Position numbers and translations under genes: made by a program
Notes under the pieces: generated by a model
What the model saw: only the letters and a program-made list of their open reading frames with translations
Told to the model about the DNA's origin: nothing
The model's database searches: none
From: Bacillota bacterium
Lineage (GTDB): Bacteria; Bacillota; Clostridia; Christensenellales; UBA1242
NCBI GenBank assembly: GCA_009784185.1
Contig: WRCD01000005.1
Location: forward strand, 1,868 to 65,867
Direction: 5' to 3'
DNA: 64,000 nucleotides
Shown: positions 3,441-39,683 of the stretch, piece by piece
How positions within the stretch are numbered: position 1 is the first letter of the stretch
Layout: the number at the start of each line of letters is the position of its first letter

Positions 3441-3516
3441 CCCTCCCTTTAGTTACAATTATATTATTAAAATAAAAATTGTCAAACAATTTCATTGTTG
3501 CGTTCCATTTTTACTA

Positions 3517-5735: not shown

Positions 5736-6518
5736 ATGACAGACTTTACGCATCCAATAGTGTTTTTAGATTCCGGTATCGGCGGAATCAGCATAATGAA
5801 TGCCGCACGGCACTTTCTCCCGCACGAAAATTTTGTGTATCTGGCCGATACCAAAAACTCACCGTACGGCAACAAAAGCAAGAAGCAAATTGCCCGGCTG
5901 GTGTTAAGTTTGGTGCGCCTTGCTACAAACACTTTTAGCCCCAAGGCTGTAGTGCTGGCCTGCAACACAGCTACAGCCGCGGCAATAAACCAGGTGCGTA
6001 AAACTTACCCTGATTTGATTGTTGCAGGAGTTGAACCTGCCATAAAACCCTCAACCGGCAATCCGGACGGCAGCATTCTGGTATTAACTACCCATGCCAC
6101 CTTAAAGCATTGCAGGCTTTTAAAAAAATATAAACGGCTGAAGCTAAACCATATCACTTACATAGCACTTCCGCAGCTGGCCGGACTGATAGACAACAAT
6201 TTAAGCAATTTGCCGGCCATCCAGCCTGAAATTAATAAAATGCTGCTGAAATACAGGCACAAAGTTACCGCTGTAGTTATAGGCTGCACACATTTCAACT
6301 TTGTAACAGAACAAATTAATCAGGCACTTGGCGGCGGAATAGTGTTTTACGACAACTGCCGCGGCACAGCAAAACGGCTTAAGTTTTGTTTGACCAAAAA
6401 GAAACTGCTCTCCACAAAAAAGACATCAGGCAAAACCGTAATATATACAACAGATTACAAATTTAAAACCACCCTGGAGTACGCCAGGTTTTTAACAACC
6501 CCGCCCACGCCCTCATAA
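5736..6518 (+). CDS. murI: Glutamate racemase
   Basis: FLDSGIGGIS, plus the two catalytic-Cys motifs VLACNTATA and VIGCTHF. Confidence 0.9.
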   Translation: MTDFTHPIVFLDSGIGGISIMNAARHFLPHENFVYLADTKNSPYGNKSKKQIARLVLSLVRLATNTFSPKAVVLACNTATAAAINQVRKTYPDLIVAGVEPAIKPSTGNPDGSILVLTTHATLKHCRLLKKYKRLKLNHITYIALPQLAGLIDNNLSNLPAIQPEINKMLLKYRHKVTAVVIGCTHFNFVTEQINQALGGGIVFYDNCRGTAKRLKFCLTKKKLLSTKKTSGKTVIYTTDYKFKTTLEYARFLTTPPTPS

Positions 6519-12961: not shown

Positions 12962-13087
12962 AATGATATTATATCATATTCTACTCTCGGCTCAAAGTAA
13001 CTTTATCAAATTCAACTTCATGCCAAAAGTAATTGCAAAACTCCAAAAGGCATTGACAATTGGGCGGGCATGACTTATAATTAGGAC

Positions 13088-20186: not shown

Positions 20187-20639
20187 TTAATCTCCGCTTG
20201 CTTCCGCAATTGCTTTTGTTTGATGAATCGTACCCCAAGGATGGTGCGGAGGTGCATAGATAGAATAAATTTTCATGGGCTCTCTTCCCGTGTTTGTTAC
20301 GTTATGCCAGGTTCCGGCAGGAACCAAGATTGCACAGTCATCATAAACGTTTTGCTGGAAAGATAAATTGTCACGGCTGCTGCCCATCTGAACAACGCCT
20401 ATGCCTTTTTCAATTCTAAGAAACTGGTCGGTGTCCGGGTGAACTTCCAGCCCGATATCTTCATTTGGATTAACACTCATAAGCGTGAGCTGTAAATGCT
20501 TGCCCGTCCAAAGAGCTGTGCGATATGTATCATTGGCAAGCGTTGCTTTGTTTATGTCAATGACAAACGGGTTTGGGCCATAATCTGTGCGGGGTTTGCT
20601 TTGCTGTATGTATACCCCGTAATGGTTGTTGTTGTACAT
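20187..20639 (-). CDS. Cupin-domain protein
   Basis: GLEVHPDTDQFLRIEKG ... VPAGTWHNVTNTG gives the two cupin motifs. Confidence 0.75.
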   Translation of the reverse strand: MYNNNHYGVYIQQSKPRTDYGPNPFVIDINKATLANDTYRTALWTGKHLQLTLMSVNPNEDIGLEVHPDTDQFLRIEKGIGVVQMGSSRDNLSFQQNVYDDCAILVPAGTWHNVTNTGREPMKIYSIYAPPHHPWGTIHQTKAIAEASGD

Positions 20640-20778
20640 AATTTCTCCTTTTACATACAGTCAGTTTATGTAAAAAAAATCTTTTTTGTTAAACAACGAG
20701 TTTAGAAATGCAAAAGAAAAAGAAGTGGCAAAAGCAACTTCTAATTTGGATAACGCAGGGTGTGCGTATACCGCTCGA

Positions 20779-20853
20779 TTGGTACCCCCAACGGGACTCG
20801 AACCCGTGTTACCGACGTGAGAGGCCAGCGTACTAACCACTATACTATGAGGG
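20779..20853 (-). tRNA. tRNA-Glu (anticodon CTC)
   Basis: On the minus strand: GCCCTCATAGTATAGTGGTTAGTAC.. with anticodon loop CTCTCAC, T-arm ACGGGTTCGAGTCCCGT, acceptor with two G-U pairs, and CCA. Confidence 0.85.
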
Positions 20854-20959
20854 CAAAGATTAAAATAACAAAGAAGAAATAAGAGTAATGGTAGTATAGC
20901 ATACTACCAGCTGGTTTTCAATCCTTTTTTTTGGAAAACTCAAAAAAACTTTTATGCGT

Positions 20960-21787
20960 TTATTCATCCCTGCAATCATCAAAACCAAAACTTACTTCGG
21001 GCAGCCATTTCATACATGGCTTGTCTAGCGCCCTTGCTTCATTGCTGCTTACGTTTAAAAACTTATTACCCGCTTTCCTTAGGTAAGTAACCTCTAAAAC
21101 ATTGCACATTGGCACATTGCCTATCATTGTGTACAACGCCTGATTTACTCCGTGCACATGAACCACCTGATGCGTTTTGTTAATCCTGTTAAATGCCTCA
21201 ATCATCTGCTCATAATATCCGCCGCGCTTTTTAAGACGCTGAATAACCCAATGCCACTCAACCACAACTTGAGAAAACTTACTTAGTATTTCTTCGGAAA
21301 GCGTGCTGAAAACCGGCCATTCCGCGCCTTCAATATCTATTTTAAGAATCATGTCATTGCGGTCAAAGTTGCCGTCCTTAACCAGCATCTCTTCAAGAGT
21401 AAGCATATTCTTGCCCTTGTTGTTTTCGCCGCAAATTCCAATTTTGAAAAACTTCTTCCGTCCGTCTACCTCGGGATAAGAAATGCTGTAGTCATACATA
21501 AAAACATCCATGTTACGCTTTTCTACATCCACATCCCACGAGGTGTCTTTCCAGATACCAATGCTATATGCCGCCGAATCCTTTTTAAAGTCATCCACCA
21601 TTACATAGCCGCCGTCATGGTCCCTGCCTATGCGCACAAAGCTCTTGCCCTCAGGCGTCTTTGGCACCAGCAGCTTATTAATAGCCTTAGCATGGTCAGC
21701 AAACTTCCACGTCCCCCTAGCTTTACTCCAGGCACTAAAATGCCGGATTCCATTCGTAAGCGTAAATATTCTCATATGTGTTTTCAT
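20960..21787 (-). CDS. FkbM/Methyltransf_21-like protein
   Basis: RIGRDHDGGYVMVDD, AYSIGIWKDTSWD and LKIDIEGAEWPV resemble the FkbM-family signature. GGAG precedes the ATG. Confidence 0.55.
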   Translation of the reverse strand: MKTHMRIFTLTNGIRHFSAWSKARGTWKFADHAKAINKLLVPKTPEGKSFVRIGRDHDGGYVMVDDFKKDSAAYSIGIWKDTSWDVDVEKRNMDVFMYDYSISYPEVDGRKKFFKIGICGENNKGKNMLTLEEMLVKDGNFDRNDMILKIDIEGAEWPVFSTLSEEILSKFSQVVVEWHWVIQRLKKRGGYYEQMIEAFNRINKTHQVVHVHGVNQALYTMIGNVPMCNVLEVTYLRKAGNKFLNVSSNEARALDKPCMKWLPEVSFGFDDCRDE

Positions 21788-21830
21788 ATCATTCTCCTGG
21801 TTGCTTTACGGGAAGTATAGCATTCTGCCC

Positions 21831-21866
21831 AAACAAAAACAAGGCATTACGCCTTGTTTTTGTTTT
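21831..21866. terminator. Bidirectional terminator after the ProRS-like gene
   Basis: AAACAAAAACAAGGC-atta-CGCCTTGTTTTTGTTTT. Confidence 0.75.
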
Positions 21867-23139
21867 ATCTAATTATCTCTCGCAAAATGCTCAGCACCTT
21901 TTCTTTGGACAACTGCTTCTTCTCACCAGTCAGCCTATCTTCATACTCAAGCTTGCCGGTTTCTAAAAAACTTTTTCCAACAATCAGCATTCGTCTTATT
22001 CCATATAACTCATTGTCTTTTATCTTTTCTCCAATCGTTAAGTCTCTATCATCTAAGCAAACCTCCAATCCCTGCGCAACCAGCTCGTTATAAATCTGTG
22101 TTGCCGCATCCAGAGTATCCGATTTAGCAATAATGTTTAATTTAAACGCAGCAACGTTATCTTCCCAAATCAGTTTGCCGTATTTGCGGAGCGAGTTGAC
22201 TACAAGCAAACATAGCATGCGCGACACTCCAAAACCATAACACCCGTTCCAGTAATAGTCTTGCTTGCCCTCCCGGTTTATAAATGTTCCTCCCATCATT
22301 TTGCTGTACACCTGGTCGTTCTGAAATATATGTCCTGCCTCGGTTGCTTTGCGCTTAACAAACTTTGACTTATCTATATCCTTATGTTCACGCAATATCA
22401 GTTCTTTAAGTCCCTCCTCTTCCAGCTCAAAAACCTCGCCGTTTACATATAGCCCCAATTCATCGTTGCAATAAATTGTATCCTGCCCATACTCCTCATC
22501 AAAAAACATAAACTCGCTGGCTATTCTGCCACCCATATCGTTAATTGACTTAATTGCTTTTATACTATCAAATCCCAGTTCTTTAAAAATTTCAAAATAC
22601 GCCACCTTAATTCTATCATAACTCTCAGTCATTTTCTCTCTGCTTTCATCAAAAGAGTAGGCGTCCATCATATTAAATTCTTTGCTTTTTAATAGTCCGC
22701 CTTGCGCCCTCAGTTCGTCTCTAAACTTTGTTCCGATTTGATAATGGCAGAATCCCAAATCCCTATAACTCTGTATATGCCCCTTTAAAAACTCGCAACT
22801 CATTTCCTCGGCAGTTGCGCATATCGAATAGTCGCTGTGCCTGCCCTTTGATACAAACATCGTTCCACTATCCGTGTATTTTTGCCATCTGCCGCTATCT
22901 TCCCAAAACTTCCTTGCCTGCAGAATGGAATATTGTACCTCGGCGCAGCCTGCGTTGTCTAAATGCTTACGAATTATATCCTCCAGTTTACGCTTAGTTT
23001 TAACAAGCAGCGTTCCAAAGCCGTAACAGCCGGCACTAAAGCGTTTTAACTGTCCGCTTTGCAGCAAAAACTCGGAAGCATATACTTCCTCCTTTCCTAT
23101 TGTCTTCCGGGTTTTTAACCCCATATTAGATAATTTCAT
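21865..23139 (-). CDS. proS: Class IIa aminoacyl-tRNA synthetase, bacterial ProRS-like, lacking the INS editing domain
   Basis: Motif 2 region YQIGTKFRDELRAQGGLLKSKEFNMMDAYSF, motif 3 region GCYGFGVSRML, and a C-terminal anticodon-binding fold. Only about 60 aa separate the region after motif 2 from EAGHIF. 424 aa. Confidence 0.7.
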   Translation of the reverse strand: MKLSNMGLKTRKTIGKEEVYASEFLLQSGQLKRFSAGCYGFGTLLVKTKRKLEDIIRKHLDNAGCAEVQYSILQARKFWEDSGRWQKYTDSGTMFVSKGRHSDYSICATAEEMSCEFLKGHIQSYRDLGFCHYQIGTKFRDELRAQGGLLKSKEFNMMDAYSFDESREKMTESYDRIKVAYFEIFKELGFDSIKAIKSINDMGGRIASEFMFFDEEYGQDTIYCNDELGLYVNGEVFELEEEGLKELILREHKDIDKSKFVKRKATEAGHIFQNDQVYSKMMGGTFINREGKQDYYWNGCYGFGVSRMLCLLVVNSLRKYGKLIWEDNVAAFKLNIIAKSDTLDAATQIYNELVAQGLEVCLDDRDLTIGEKIKDNELYGIRRMLIVGKSFLETGKLEYEDRLTGEKKQLSKEKVLSILREIIR

Positions 23140-23164
23140 TTTCTTAATTCTCCTTAATTATTTT

Positions 23165-23197
23165 AAATAAAAACGGCGGCCTGTTATGGCTACCGTT
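23165..23197 (-). terminator. Second leader terminator (segments 3:4)
   Basis: RNA ACGGUAGCC-auaaca-GGCCGCCGU followed by UUUUUAUUU. It lies 25 nt upstream of the AAGGAG of the ProRS-like gene. Confidence 0.55.
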
Positions 23198-23211
23198 AAA
23201 ACCCTTGCTTT

Positions 23212-23249
23212 AAAAACAAAAACGGCAGCCCGGTGTTCCGGGCTGCCGT
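23212..23249 (-). terminator. First leader terminator (segments 1:2)
   Basis: RNA ACGGCAGCCCGG-aaca-CCGGGCUGCCGU, a 12-bp perfect stem, followed by UUUUUGUUUUU. Confidence 0.75.
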
Positions 23250-23283
23250 TTAAAAACTAATTGACACGCACAAAACACACTAT

Positions 23284-23340
23284 CTATTCGGTAGTGGTTG
23301 TAGTGGGGATATTGAAGATGTTACGCACAATTTTTTGCAT
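23284..23340 (-). CDS. Candidate 18-aa leader peptide MQKIVRNIFNIPTTTTTE
   Basis: ATG is preceded by AAAGGAGATATATT (GGAG with 8-nt spacing). It has five consecutive Thr codons ACT ACA ACC ACT ACC, then GAA TAG. It is below the ORF-track size cut-off. Confidence 0.5.
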   Translation of the reverse strand: MQKIVRNIFNIPTTTTTE

Positions 23341-23363
23341 AATATATCTCCTTTAATACTTAT

Positions 23364-23391
23364 ATTATATACCGATTTATATTTTTGTCAA
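23364..23391 (-). promoter_or_regulatory. Near-consensus sigma-70 promoter driving leader + ProRS-like gene
   Basis: On the minus strand: TTGACA, 16-nt spacer, TATAAT. Confidence 0.65.
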
Positions 23392-23424
23392 CGGATTTTA
23401 GAGAAATTAAAACACTTTTTCATA

Positions 23425-23469
23425 TACCCCGTCGGCTCCGCCGCCACCCCTTTATCTTAAAGGGGAATT
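23425..23469 (-). repeat. Family-A repeat (reverse orientation)
   Basis: TACCCCGTCGGCTCCGCCGCCACCCCTTTATCTTAAAGGGGAATT. Confidence 0.85.
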
Positions 23470-23487
23470 TTGGGTGATTTTTTGAGC

Positions 23488-24282
23488 CTACCTAATAATC
23501 CCAACGTAGCTAACCGTTTTTAGCGGAACCGTGATTTTGCCGGCCACGCTATGGCGGATAAACAGGTCGCTTATGGCATTGTAGTATGTTTTATGTTCGC
23601 AGCTGTTAACCGGCGGAACAAACGATGCCGCCATAATCCAGCCCATAAACTGCTCACGCGTAAGCAAAATACTGTTATCAAACAACTTGTACTCAACCTC
23701 ACCGGGCATAAACATCTCGTTAAATTCATCCGGGTTTTTGTAGTCCACGCCTTCGGCAAAGCCCTTAAACTTGGCGCAAAACTGATGATTTATCTCGGCT
23801 ATTTCTTTAAACAGCGCAATATCTGTATCCTGCATATGCCATACAAGCGCCAGCTTGCCGTACGGCTTTAAAATACGCTCTGCTTCAGCCAGAAACGCCT
23901 CCCGGTTAACCAGATGAAACGCCTGCGCCGCCGTTACAATGTCAAACCTGTCTGCCGGCAGATTGGTAAACTCGGCAGCCCCGTCAATTATTTTAAAGCC
24001 CTTTTGCTCCGAAAGATACACGCTTGCCTCAAGCCGCATTGCCGCATTAGGTTCAATACACACCACTTTAAAACCATGATCCAGCAAGCCCTTGCTAAAC
24101 AGCCCGGTACCGGCACCAATGTCTGCCACAACCGTGTTGCCCGCATCGTTTACCTTAGTAAGCAGATATTTAAAAAACGCTGTAGCATACGGCGGTCGGT
24201 ATTTAGCAAACCCCACTGCTTTGTCTGTAAACTTTTCAATGTTTTCTTTGTTTGTACTCAAGCGGCCTCTCCTTAGTATCAT
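23488..24282 (-). CDS. Class I SAM-dependent methyltransferase
   Basis: VADIGAGTGLFSKGLLDHGFKVVCIEPNAAM is the glycine-rich SAM-binding motif I. The likely true start is the TTG at 24261 (MSTNKEN), preceded by AAGGAGAGG. Confidence 0.8.
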   Translation of the reverse strand: MILRRGRLSTNKENIEKFTDKAVGFAKYRPPYATAFFKYLLTKVNDAGNTVVADIGAGTGLFSKGLLDHGFKVVCIEPNAAMRLEASVYLSEQKGFKIIDGAAEFTNLPADRFDIVTAAQAFHLVNREAFLAEAERILKPYGKLALVWHMQDTDIALFKEIAEINHQFCAKFKGFAEGVDYKNPDEFNEMFMPGEVEYKLFDNSILLTREQFMGWIMAASFVPPVNSCEHKTYYNAISDLFIRHSVAGKITVPLKTVSYVGIIR

Positions 24283-24447
24283 TATATTCCCATTTAAAGA
24301 GGGATGTCACCTGGTGACGGGATACAGTGTGCTAATAGTTTCCTCTATTTCACAAGCAATATTACCACAAAACCACGCAAAAGTCAAACTTATACGGAAA
24401 AAACCCGCAAACAAATATCAGATATCAAATGTCAGATATCAGTTGAA

Positions 24448-24575
24448 GGTCGCTGACGCTCCAAAAAGATGTGGCAGCGAAGTGACGGGGGATGTGATTT
24501 GCGAAGGCACCTAACAGACCACGTCAGCTTTGCTAGCCACATCTTTAGTTATTAAGTATTAAGTGCTTTTGGTTT
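24448..24575 (+). repeat. Family-B long hairpin (copy B1) with flanking modules; left arm of ~125-bp inverted repeat
   Basis: GGTCGCTGACGCTCC, then stem AAAGATGTGGCAGCGAAGTGACG, loop GGGGATGTGATTTGCGAAGGCACCTAACAGACC, stem CGTCAGCTTTGCTAGCCACATCTTT, then (ATTAAGT)n. Confidence 0.85.
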
Positions 24576-39654: not shown

Positions 39655-39683
39655 TTGACAAGTAAACCTACTTTGCGTATAAT
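39655..39683 (+). promoter_or_regulatory. Consensus sigma-70 promoter placed for a leaderless marR-family mRNA
   Basis: TTGACA, 17-nt spacer, TATAAT. Only 7 nt (ATACATT) separate the -10 box from the ATG at 39691, and there is no Shine-Dalgarno sequence. Confidence 0.6.

Follow-up and report, generated by a model that had tools for sequence, protein, structure and literature searches.

The leader region in front of a gene for a divergent prolyl-tRNA synthetase (ProRS) from a member of the Clostridia was analyzed. The gene lies on the minus strand of a 64,000-nucleotide (nt) stretch of contig WRCD01000005.1, here called the window; the leader features were read on this strand, and coordinates are window positions unless a related locus is named. 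We consider it probable that the leader works as a transcription attenuator of the ribosome-mediated (leader-peptide) class and the his/trp type, which controls this ProRS gene lacking the INS editing domain and which ancestrally sensed tRNA-Pro. It contains a short leader open reading frame (ORF1) and six pairing segments, numbered here so that hairpin H0 is 1:2, the antiterminator 2:3, the first terminator (T1) 3:4, a relay helix 4:5 and the second terminator (T2) 5:6 (Table 1). An initial annotation of this DNA had described an attenuator with a translated leader, tandem terminators and mutually exclusive helices and without T-box features. This general description was confirmed, and the promoter, the Shine-Dalgarno sequence, ORF1, both terminators and the Shine-Dalgarno sequence and ATG of the synthetase were each located where the annotation had put them on the minus strand.

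The strongest argument that the arrangement is not due to chance is its conservation. Orthologous loci were gathered by exact-protein look-up plus one metagenome pattern scan. The same leader was found at 10 orthologous loci of uncultured Clostridia (L081, L082, L084, L086, L092, L093, L095, L097, L099 and L100; 59-71% protein identity), in which the flanking genes are unrelated; together with the window this gives 11 leaders. All share a TTGAC(A/T)...TATAAT-like promoter, the sequence AAGGAG, an ORF of 17-20 codons, a hairpin spanning the stop codon, the motif GUGUUUUG, T1 and, except for L084, T2. Conservation of the leader ORF and of the helices, which the initial annotation had left to be checked, is thus found in the form of one common layout at 10 related loci. 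The genes upstream vary among the relatives, and the leader always accompanies either proS or a proB-like gene together with proS. Two relatives, L093 (at 71% the closest) and L084, have the leader in front of a gene for a proB-like kinase, which lies directly upstream of the ProRS gene; no proA was found near these two kinase genes, and there is no aspartokinase model among the NCBIfam matches of the kinase.

ORF1 has the properties of a translated frame. It is open in all 11 leaders, and the other two frames contain a total of 41 stop codons over the same spans. In 10 of the 11 leaders the start codon is preceded by AAGGAG at a distance of 6-9 nt; the ORF1 of L084 looks leaderless, because its ATG follows the -10 box by 6 nt without a Shine-Dalgarno sequence. 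Every leader contains a Pro codon (CCC, CCG or CCU, thus with synonymous variation) that precedes the stop codon by 18-24 nt. One Pro codon per leader is conserved, and L093, L086 and L084 contain two. The CCC used in the window is the rarest Pro codon in ten sampled window genes (14%). Between 6 and 27 nt before the stop codon the window reads N-I-P-T-T-T-T-T and most relatives read N-(I/M)-x-P-x-T-(I/T)-T.

A helix can also form at the start of ORF1. Minimum-free-energy folds of 8 of the 11 leaders contain a pairing between the Shine-Dalgarno region and ORF1 codons 8-9, which is UUAAG:CUUAA in the relatives and has a different register in the window, where GGAGAU (23351-23346) can pair with AUCUUC (23319-23314) inside ORF1. 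Such a helix may occlude the Shine-Dalgarno sequence and could restrict the leader to one round of translation, similar to what has been proposed for trpL.

The complete leader is strongly structured. Its 236 nt fold with −68.8 kcal/mol, compared to −45.1 ± 4.3 kcal/mol for shuffled sequences (z = −5.6). RNAalifold applied to the 11 leaders recovered H0 and T1 with compensatory changes in 9 of 18 pairs. In the alignment of these two hairpins 91.4% of the cells are paired, and none of 500 shuffles reached the observed pairing, compensatory-pair count or covariation score. H0 occurs in at least five different sequences, for example ACUAUAAC/GUUAUAGU, CUACAACA/UGUUGUAG, ACCAUAUUA/UAAUAUGGU, CACUAU/AUAGUG and ACGUAU/AUAUGU, and in most leaders its lower stem includes the Pro codon. 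The window H0 is the weakest (−9.9 kcal/mol versus −11.3 to −15.7 kcal/mol in the relatives). T1, with 10 G-C pairs and a hairpin energy of −28 kcal/mol, is the best terminator-like site within 20500-24500; its stem had been given as 12 base pairs (bp) and in fact comprises 14. The distances are conserved as well: in every leader the first base of the stop codon is followed after 2-8 nt by GUGUUUU, and the end of T1 lies 61-87 nt downstream of the stop codon.

The conserved strand that contains GUGUUUUG (GUGUUUUGUGC...) pairs with the 5' arm and the loop of T1. This antiterminator was folded with the RNA under a ribosome masked, whose A site was placed on the Pro codon, and with the transcript ended at the T1 loop. 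Under these conditions the minimum-free-energy structure of all 11 leaders is the pairing of a GUGUUUUG(U)GC(N)UACC-like segment 2 with the GGUAGUC-AAAACAC segment 3 (T1 5' arm plus loop). The window helix has 13 bp and −9.9 kcal/mol in the masked fold, and 14 of 14 model pairs are satisfied on alignment A2. Duplex energies range from −10.9 to −16.2 kcal/mol and beat shuffled sequences at the 5% level in 10 of the 11 leaders, and 88.7% of the cells of the 2:3 alignment are paired versus about 45% in slid controls. In L084 the sequence of T1 is unrelated and its complementarity to segment 2 is kept.

T2 consists of 9 pairs, one of them a wobble, with one A.C mismatch (−12.4 kcal/mol); a simple terminator scan missed it because the stem is too imperfect. 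All 10 leaders that contain T2 show complementarity between the 3' arm of T1 and the 5' arm of T2, with energies of −6.3 to −16.6 kcal/mol. In the window this 4:5 helix is GGCUGCCGUU:AACGGUAGCC, 10 bp including one G.U, and its −16.6 kcal/mol compare with −12.4 kcal/mol for T2 itself. When the antiterminator was enforced and the last arm was left untranscribed, 4:5 formed in all 10 leaders. The full-length RNA favors the T2 state over 4:5 by just 0.6 kcal/mol in the window and by 0 to 8.9 kcal/mol in the others. In L095 the sequence of T2 is unrelated to that of T1, and a 6-7-bp pairing of T2 with the T1 3' arm and U-tract is kept. The 4:5 helix is the 10-bp pairing that the initial annotation had numbered 2:3 and proposed to keep the weaker terminator from forming, much as in trp. 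The pairing itself is real and fits as a second step that would disarm T2; nothing in that earlier model stops the strong T1. The complementarity between CUACCG in the Thr codons and CGGUAG, also pointed out there, is present and is not needed in the mechanism proposed here.

The sequence elements and their conservation, the covariation of H0 and T1, the conserved 2:3 and 4:5 complementarity and the distances between the elements were all computed; from these data we infer that ORF1 is translated, that ribosomes stall on it and which signal makes them stall. In the resulting model, transcription would start at the consensus promoter, a ribosome would load on the 18-codon ORF1, and the RNA would adopt one of two mutually exclusive sets of helices, 1:2, 3:4 and 5:6 (OFF) or 2:3 and 4:5 (ON). 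If the leader is not translated, H0 would hold segment 2 and T1 would form; if the ribosome reaches the stop codon, it would cover GUGUUUUG, and T1 would form again. Transcription would then end at about 23212, and polymerases escaping T1 would meet T2 at about 23165. A ribosome stalled with its A site about 27 to 6 nt before the stop codon would cover segment 1 and leave segment 2 free to pair with the emerging 5' arm and loop of T1, thereby blocking T1. The freed 3' arm of T1 (segment 4) would in turn pair with the 5' arm of T2 (segment 5) before the last arm is made, T2 would be blocked too, and the synthetase gene would be transcribed past both terminators. A ribosome extends about 13 nt to the 3' side of its A-site codon. 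Given this footprint, the start of segment 2 is covered by a terminating ribosome, and stalling 6-27 nt ahead of the stop codon puts the ribosome on segment 1 and frees segment 2.

Several observations weigh against this interpretation. T1 of the window (−28 kcal/mol) is far stabler than the antiterminator (−9.9 kcal/mol in the fold, −12.7 kcal/mol as a duplex), and read-through would therefore depend on kinetics, as in the trp operon; at equilibrium T2 is preferred over 4:5 in 6 of 10 leaders and 4:5 in the remaining 4. The partner strand of the 2:3 duplex in the window is rich in G+C, and for this reason the duplex does not beat shuffled sequences (z = −1.0). Covariation of 2:3 is weak, with 2 compensatory pairs and with 23-52 of 500 shuffles reaching the observed values, and when segment 2 was combined with segment 3 of the other leaders, the native partners were not favored, so that this comparison yields no evidence of covariation. 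Since double changes are few and the partner swap is uninformative, the antiterminator rests on conserved complementarity and position and not on covariation. Furthermore, the 11 leaders represent about 6 independent sequence types, and the ortholog L089 has a plain promoter without such a leader. The translation of ORF1 and both termination sites are predictions, and a single Pro codon makes a thin sensor, with Thr codons likewise in frame in all 11 leaders.

Table 1. Features of the proS leader in the window and at related loci. Positions are window coordinates unless a locus is given.
Feature	Position	Strand	Basis or remark
-35 hexamer TTGACA	23386-23391	−	Sequence reading; TTGAC(A/T) at the equivalent position in the leaders of the relatives
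-10 hexamer TATAAT, spacer 16 nt	23364-23369	−	12/12 consensus match together with -35
Shine-Dalgarno sequence AAGGAGA of ORF1	23347-23353	−	6 nt before the start codon
ORF1, 18 codons + TAG, predicted peptide MQKIVRNIFNIPTTTTTE	23284-23340	−	ATG 23340, TAG 23286-23284
In-frame Pro codon CCC, 21 nt before the stop codon	23305-23307	−	Pro codon kept in 11/11 leaders
Five consecutive Thr codons ACU ACA ACC ACU ACC (H0 5' strand)	23290-23304	−	Sequence reading
H0 (1:2, anti-antiterminator), end of ORF1 paired with UAGUGUGUUUUGUGCGUG past the stop codon, stop codon in the loop	23265-23305	−	RNAalifold, covariation
Segment 2, antiterminator 5' strand GUGUUUUGUGCGUGUC	23263-23278	−	Starts 8 nt after the first stop-codon base
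Segment 3, GGCAGCCCGGAACAC, most of the T1 5' arm, loop and first 3'-arm base	23233-23247	−	Partner of segment 2
T1 (3:4), 14-bp perfect stem, AACA loop, UUUUUGUUUUU tail	23212-23251	−	Hairpin 23251-23220, U-tract to 23212
T2 (5:6), AACGGUAGCC / GGCCGCCGUU + UUUAUUU	23165-23197	−	Hairpin 23197-23172, U-rich tail to 23165
Shine-Dalgarno sequence AAGGAGA and ATG of the ProRS gene	23137-23155	−	Shine-Dalgarno sequence at 23155, ATG at 23139
ProRS gene, 424 aa, bacterial type, no INS editing domain; class II core and HGTP anticodon-binding domain	21865-23139	−	Domain and profile searches
Amino-acid kinase, 284-287 aa	L093 824-1678; L084 2784-3647		Best match glutamate 5-kinase (proB), 71-83 bits versus 186-bit cut-off
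Second upstream ORF (ORF2), example, encodes MKNKKMQTPPVLGGRKNIYYLDYY	L081 3898-3972		
ORF1 peptide, L093			MKNLKINIFNIPTRPLF
ORF1 peptide, L081			MRNTVIFQLNIAPETITF
ORF1 peptide, L097			MKFAVIFQLNIAPATITF
ORF1 peptide, L100			MKNLVVFQLNIAPATITF
ORF1 peptide, L092			MKKTVIFQLNMPITTILF
ORF1 peptide, L095			MKNLFVLQLNIVPATITNLL
ORF1 peptide, L086			MKKLTIQLNIVPAPTTELL
ORF1 peptide, L082			MKKLIISELNMPMTITKLL
ORF1 peptide, L099			VKNIMISILNIPMTITVLL
ORF1 peptide, L084			MKTIINANLIPAPKTYF

The product of the regulated gene is, by homology, a divergent bacterial-type ProRS without editing domain. NCBIfam models for proline--tRNA ligase match with E = 2.5e-95 to 7e-79 and models for threonyl-tRNA synthetase (ThrRS) with only 3e-19; NF008979 is aligned over residues 1-419 (E = 7e-79). 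The protein is divergent, since all scores are below the curated NCBIfam cut-offs. Aligned with 2i4l, the ProRS of Rhodopseudomonas palustris that lacks INS, it matches over its full length (residues 2-416, E = 2.2e-48), and its alignment with full-length bacterial ProRS falls into two pieces on either side of the missing INS domain. The ProRS motifs FRDE, MxDAYSF and GCYG are aligned. Its closest database relatives (59-71% identity) are all from uncultured Firmicutes/Clostridia assemblies, and no ProRS paralog was detected in the 64-kb window. The initial annotation had considered that the Thr-rich leader might indicate a different amino-acid specificity of the enzyme. This is not supported, given the ProRS motifs, the INS-less architecture of the R. 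palustris type, the proB-like partner in two relatives and the Pro codon in all 11 leaders.

We judge that the ancestral signal is a shortage of charged tRNA-Pro, because an in-frame and usually rare Pro codon is present in 11 of 11 leaders and because the regulated unit is proS or a proB-like gene plus proS. The identity of the gene as ProRS and an invariant Pro-Pro in a second upstream ORF of eight relatives also favor proline. The run of five Thr codons, stressed in the initial annotation, did not hold up in the comparison as the defining signal. In the critical region, where a stall matters, the window has five Thr codons and the relatives have 1-2; a run of five is present only in the window. 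A 9-nt duplication is suggested by the direct repeat CCACUAC-AA-CCACUAC within the Thr stretch of the window. According to a structure-guided comparison, the homologous CACUA in L093, which forms the upper 5' strand of H0, is read as Pro-Leu, and the window reads it as Thr codons. The run of five would accordingly be a lineage-specific expansion, and this copy of the leader would respond to a shortage of Thr-tRNA as well. If the expansion is functional, the window would provide a natural example of an attenuator gaining a new input. A codon run in a single genome can, as a caution, be a lineage-specific by-product of an A/C-rich RNA strand, and relatives should be compared before specificity is deduced from it.

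The second upstream ORF (ORF2) leads to another, tentative proposal. Between T2 and the ProRS start, L081, L082, L086, L092, L095, L097, L099 and L100 contain ORF2 with its own Shine-Dalgarno sequence. It encodes an invariant Pro-Pro...Gly-Gly, the codons of which form a CCRCCC-N3-5-GGGUGG hairpin and include an invariant rare CCC codon. In L100 the frame is shifted after Pro-Pro and the hairpin is kept, in L093 ORF2 is cut by a stop codon, and in the window it is absent. Folds of the region from ORF2 to proS showed no conserved terminator and no convincing structure sequestering the Shine-Dalgarno sequence, only pairing of U-rich with A-rich stretches. We regard it as rather unlikely, and put it forward tentatively, that the proS T-box of this clade was replaced by a two-ORF leader for several signals. 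ORF1 would then read Thr/Ile-type codons or undergo nascent-peptide arrest, and ORF2, with its Pro-Pro and CCRCCC...GGGUGG hairpin, would read tRNA-Pro charge or the activity of elongation factor P without a terminator. Loss of ORF2 and expansion of the Thr codons would make the window a derived form and a natural case of an attenuator changing its input amino acid. A hairpin loosely resembling that of ORF2 (CCCCUUUAAGAUAAAGGGG, followed by UGG and without a U-tract) is located at 23440-23465 on the minus strand of the window, past the stop codon of the methyltransferase gene upstream and ahead of the leader promoter.

It is unlikely that the attenuator is real and that its selected signal throughout the family is threonine, perhaps together with isoleucine, with ProRS cross-regulated by the threonine supply or the synthetase no longer handling proline. 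Besides the five consecutive Thr codons in the stall-relevant region of the window, this explanation can draw on at least one in-frame Thr codon in this region of every relative, on T-I-T in six of them with synonymous variation of the Thr codons, and on the weak H0 of the window, as expected if Thr codons were favored at the cost of the helix. Moreover, Thr_leader (RF00506) is the top Rfam match on the leader strand (24.5 bits, E = 0.033 in an 801-nt search), although it stays below the gathering score of 55. However, the number of Thr codons drops to 1 in L093 and L084, and L093 reads the homologous bases as Pro-Leu. Both ACN and CCN codons are expected by chance here, because the strand has to be A/C-rich to pair with its G/U-rich partner. 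E-values and motifs clearly make the protein a ProRS and not a ThrRS, it is paired with a proB-like gene whose NCBIfam matches are free of aspartokinase models, and the second ORF of eight relatives carries Pro-Pro.

ORF1 might also act as a general sensor of translation stress or as a nascent-peptide arrest sequence similar to the leaders of erm, cat and ABC-F genes, with a drug, a metabolite or any slowing of the ribosome opening the antiterminator and no particular amino acid being sensed; the initial annotation raised an arrest leader too, and we consider this very unlikely. Only one cognate codon is present, and the residues (L/F)-N-(I/M)-x-P, just before the critical region, are common to most leaders. 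Against this, CUUAAU is read in another frame in L084 (N-L-I instead of L-N), so that its conservation reflects a constraint on the RNA and not on the peptide. In addition, the N-terminal half of the peptide is variable, and regulation falls on a synthetase of housekeeping type and on a kinase of the proline pathway, not on resistance genes. The C-terminal residues of ORF1 differ in every lineage, are frame-shifted in L093 and form no conserved core peptide. A precursor of a peptide that is made on ribosomes and modified after translation (RiPP), or a small-peptide operon that takes in the FkbM-like methyltransferase, tRNA-Glu(CUC) and cupin located downstream, was considered for ORF1 as well and rejected, as these neighbors are not conserved.

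That ORF1 is untranslated, and the hairpins are switched by an RNA-binding protein, tRNA or small molecule or are plain terminators that serve the upstream gene and precede an unrelated promoter, is highly improbable: H0, T1 and T2 are indeed RNA-level features, and any factor holding segment 1 would serve the antiterminator logic, but the open frame, the strong Shine-Dalgarno sequence and the fixed distance from stop codon to segment 2 across 11 leaders, the lack of an Rfam family match, the consensus promoter upstream of the ORF and not downstream of T2, and the constant association with proS or proB-like plus proS despite varying upstream genes all speak against it.

The promoter upstream of ORF1 is one of four perfect TTGACA-N16-18-TATAAT sequences in the window, where 0.04 are expected, and transcription is predicted from its position to start near 23357. 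No promoter fits between T2 and the Shine-Dalgarno sequence of the ProRS gene. The other three perfect promoters are located at 3458-3485 (minus strand), 13053-13081 (plus strand) and 39655-39683 (plus strand).

T-box control was likewise considered and rejected. Matches to the T-box model (RF00230) were absent from the whole window at its gathering threshold, from 22900-23700 at E<=10 and from 9 related loci at E<=0.1, and a search of the leader against Rfam returned no family at its threshold. Related lineages still use a T-box, as judged from L005 (Candidatus Scatovivens), which encodes an INS-less ProRS with 35% identity. Its gene is preceded by a T-box-like leader (5738-5924; 47.9 bits, E = 1.3e-9, gathering score 93) that contains AGGAUGGUACCGUG followed by a U-rich tail. 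In this family the translated leader has apparently replaced the T-box, which the more distant relative keeps in T-box-like form.

Further loci were compared with the window. The only terminator of L084 (2398-2786) is unrelated in sequence; downstream of it come a longer ORF of 38 codons and a third hairpin that resembles a terminator (AACCGCAAAAAAGGG...CUCUUUUGUGGUUUU). With a covariance model of the family, neither the window nor 21 other loci yielded a second copy of the leader, and a sub-threshold Phe_leader match in L082 was discarded as a terminator between genes. This clade does not have leader peptides in front of all its synthetase genes, since in L097 the valyl-tRNA synthetase gene beside the ProRS gene is preceded by a plain promoter without a leader. 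Scanning metagenomes for a family-specific peptide pattern gave 2 loci, one of them usable, and L102 was left out because it is too short. In a scan of genome contigs with a broad alignment of ProRS, all matches listed had at most 37% identity, and no close leaders were found among them. A 41%-identical paralog in L103 (529-3251) is encoded divergently beside a gene for another class II synthetase-like protein (432 aa) and lies in a cluster with WbqC, PIG-L and radical-SAM genes. It has no such leader, and a ProRS-like enzyme may be used outside translation there. Directly downstream of the window ProRS gene are an FkbM-family methyltransferase-like ORF (20960-21787, minus strand) and tRNA-Glu(CUC) (20780-20854, minus strand), followed by a cupin and a LURP-one/scramblase-like ORF, none of which is conserved beside the orthologs.

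Among known systems, the attenuator of the his operon (hisL) of Salmonella and E. coli follows the same relay logic as the window element. The 1980 model of Johnston et al. is said to comprise six pairing segments behind a translated leader, which pair as A:B, C:D and E:F when transcription terminates and as B:C and D:E upon ribosome stalling. In hisL only E:F is a terminator, whereas the middle hairpin of the window, T1, has a U-tract and is a strong terminator in its own right. There are seven cognate His codons in the his leader and one cognate Pro codon plus five Thr codons in the window leader; the two share no sequence homology, and the window host belongs to the class Clostridia. Like that of the window, the thrL leader (RF00506) is short, carries a run of Thr (and Ile) codons and precedes an intrinsic terminator. 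It differs in that the window scores below its gathering threshold (24.5 versus 55), that the gene encodes ProRS and not an enzyme of threonine biosynthesis, and that the Thr run is not kept in the relatives.

Attenuation by a leader peptide has precedents among synthetase genes. In E. coli pheST is controlled in this way through the pheM leader. Bacilli provide a case from the Firmicutes, where His leader peptides have been predicted upstream of hisS paralogs, ordinary leader peptides thus replacing T-boxes (PMC2965389). These leaders share with the window the control of a synthetase gene, but have runs of cognate codons and a single terminator. The T-boxes of Firmicute proS genes occupy the same position and presumably serve the same purpose as the window leader, more synthetase upon undercharging of tRNA-Pro; a T-box works without translation, by direct binding of uncharged tRNA, whereas the window leader has no T-box match. 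The Salmonella mgtCBR leader uses tandem upstream ORFs with Pro codons to sense the charging of tRNA-Pro (PMC3641672). The conserved Pro codons of the mgtCBR and mgtA leaders (mgtP and mgtL) can be compared with the two upstream ORFs of eight relatives, the second of which has the invariant Pro-Pro. However, the mgt genes are proteobacterial genes for Mg2+ transport and virulence, the window has no second ORF, and ORF2 of the relatives is not followed by a terminator.

Leader-peptide attenuation is textbook knowledge for Proteobacteria and has rarely been documented in Firmicutes, where T-boxes normally control synthetase genes. Literature searches found no leader-peptide attenuator of proS. 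Taken together, the conclusion is well supported that the window element is a previously undescribed member of the classical attenuator class, with a double-terminator relay and with a codon run that does not match its gene. It is also a compact natural design, in which one ribosome-sensing event would be relayed via three hairpins and disarm two serial terminators.

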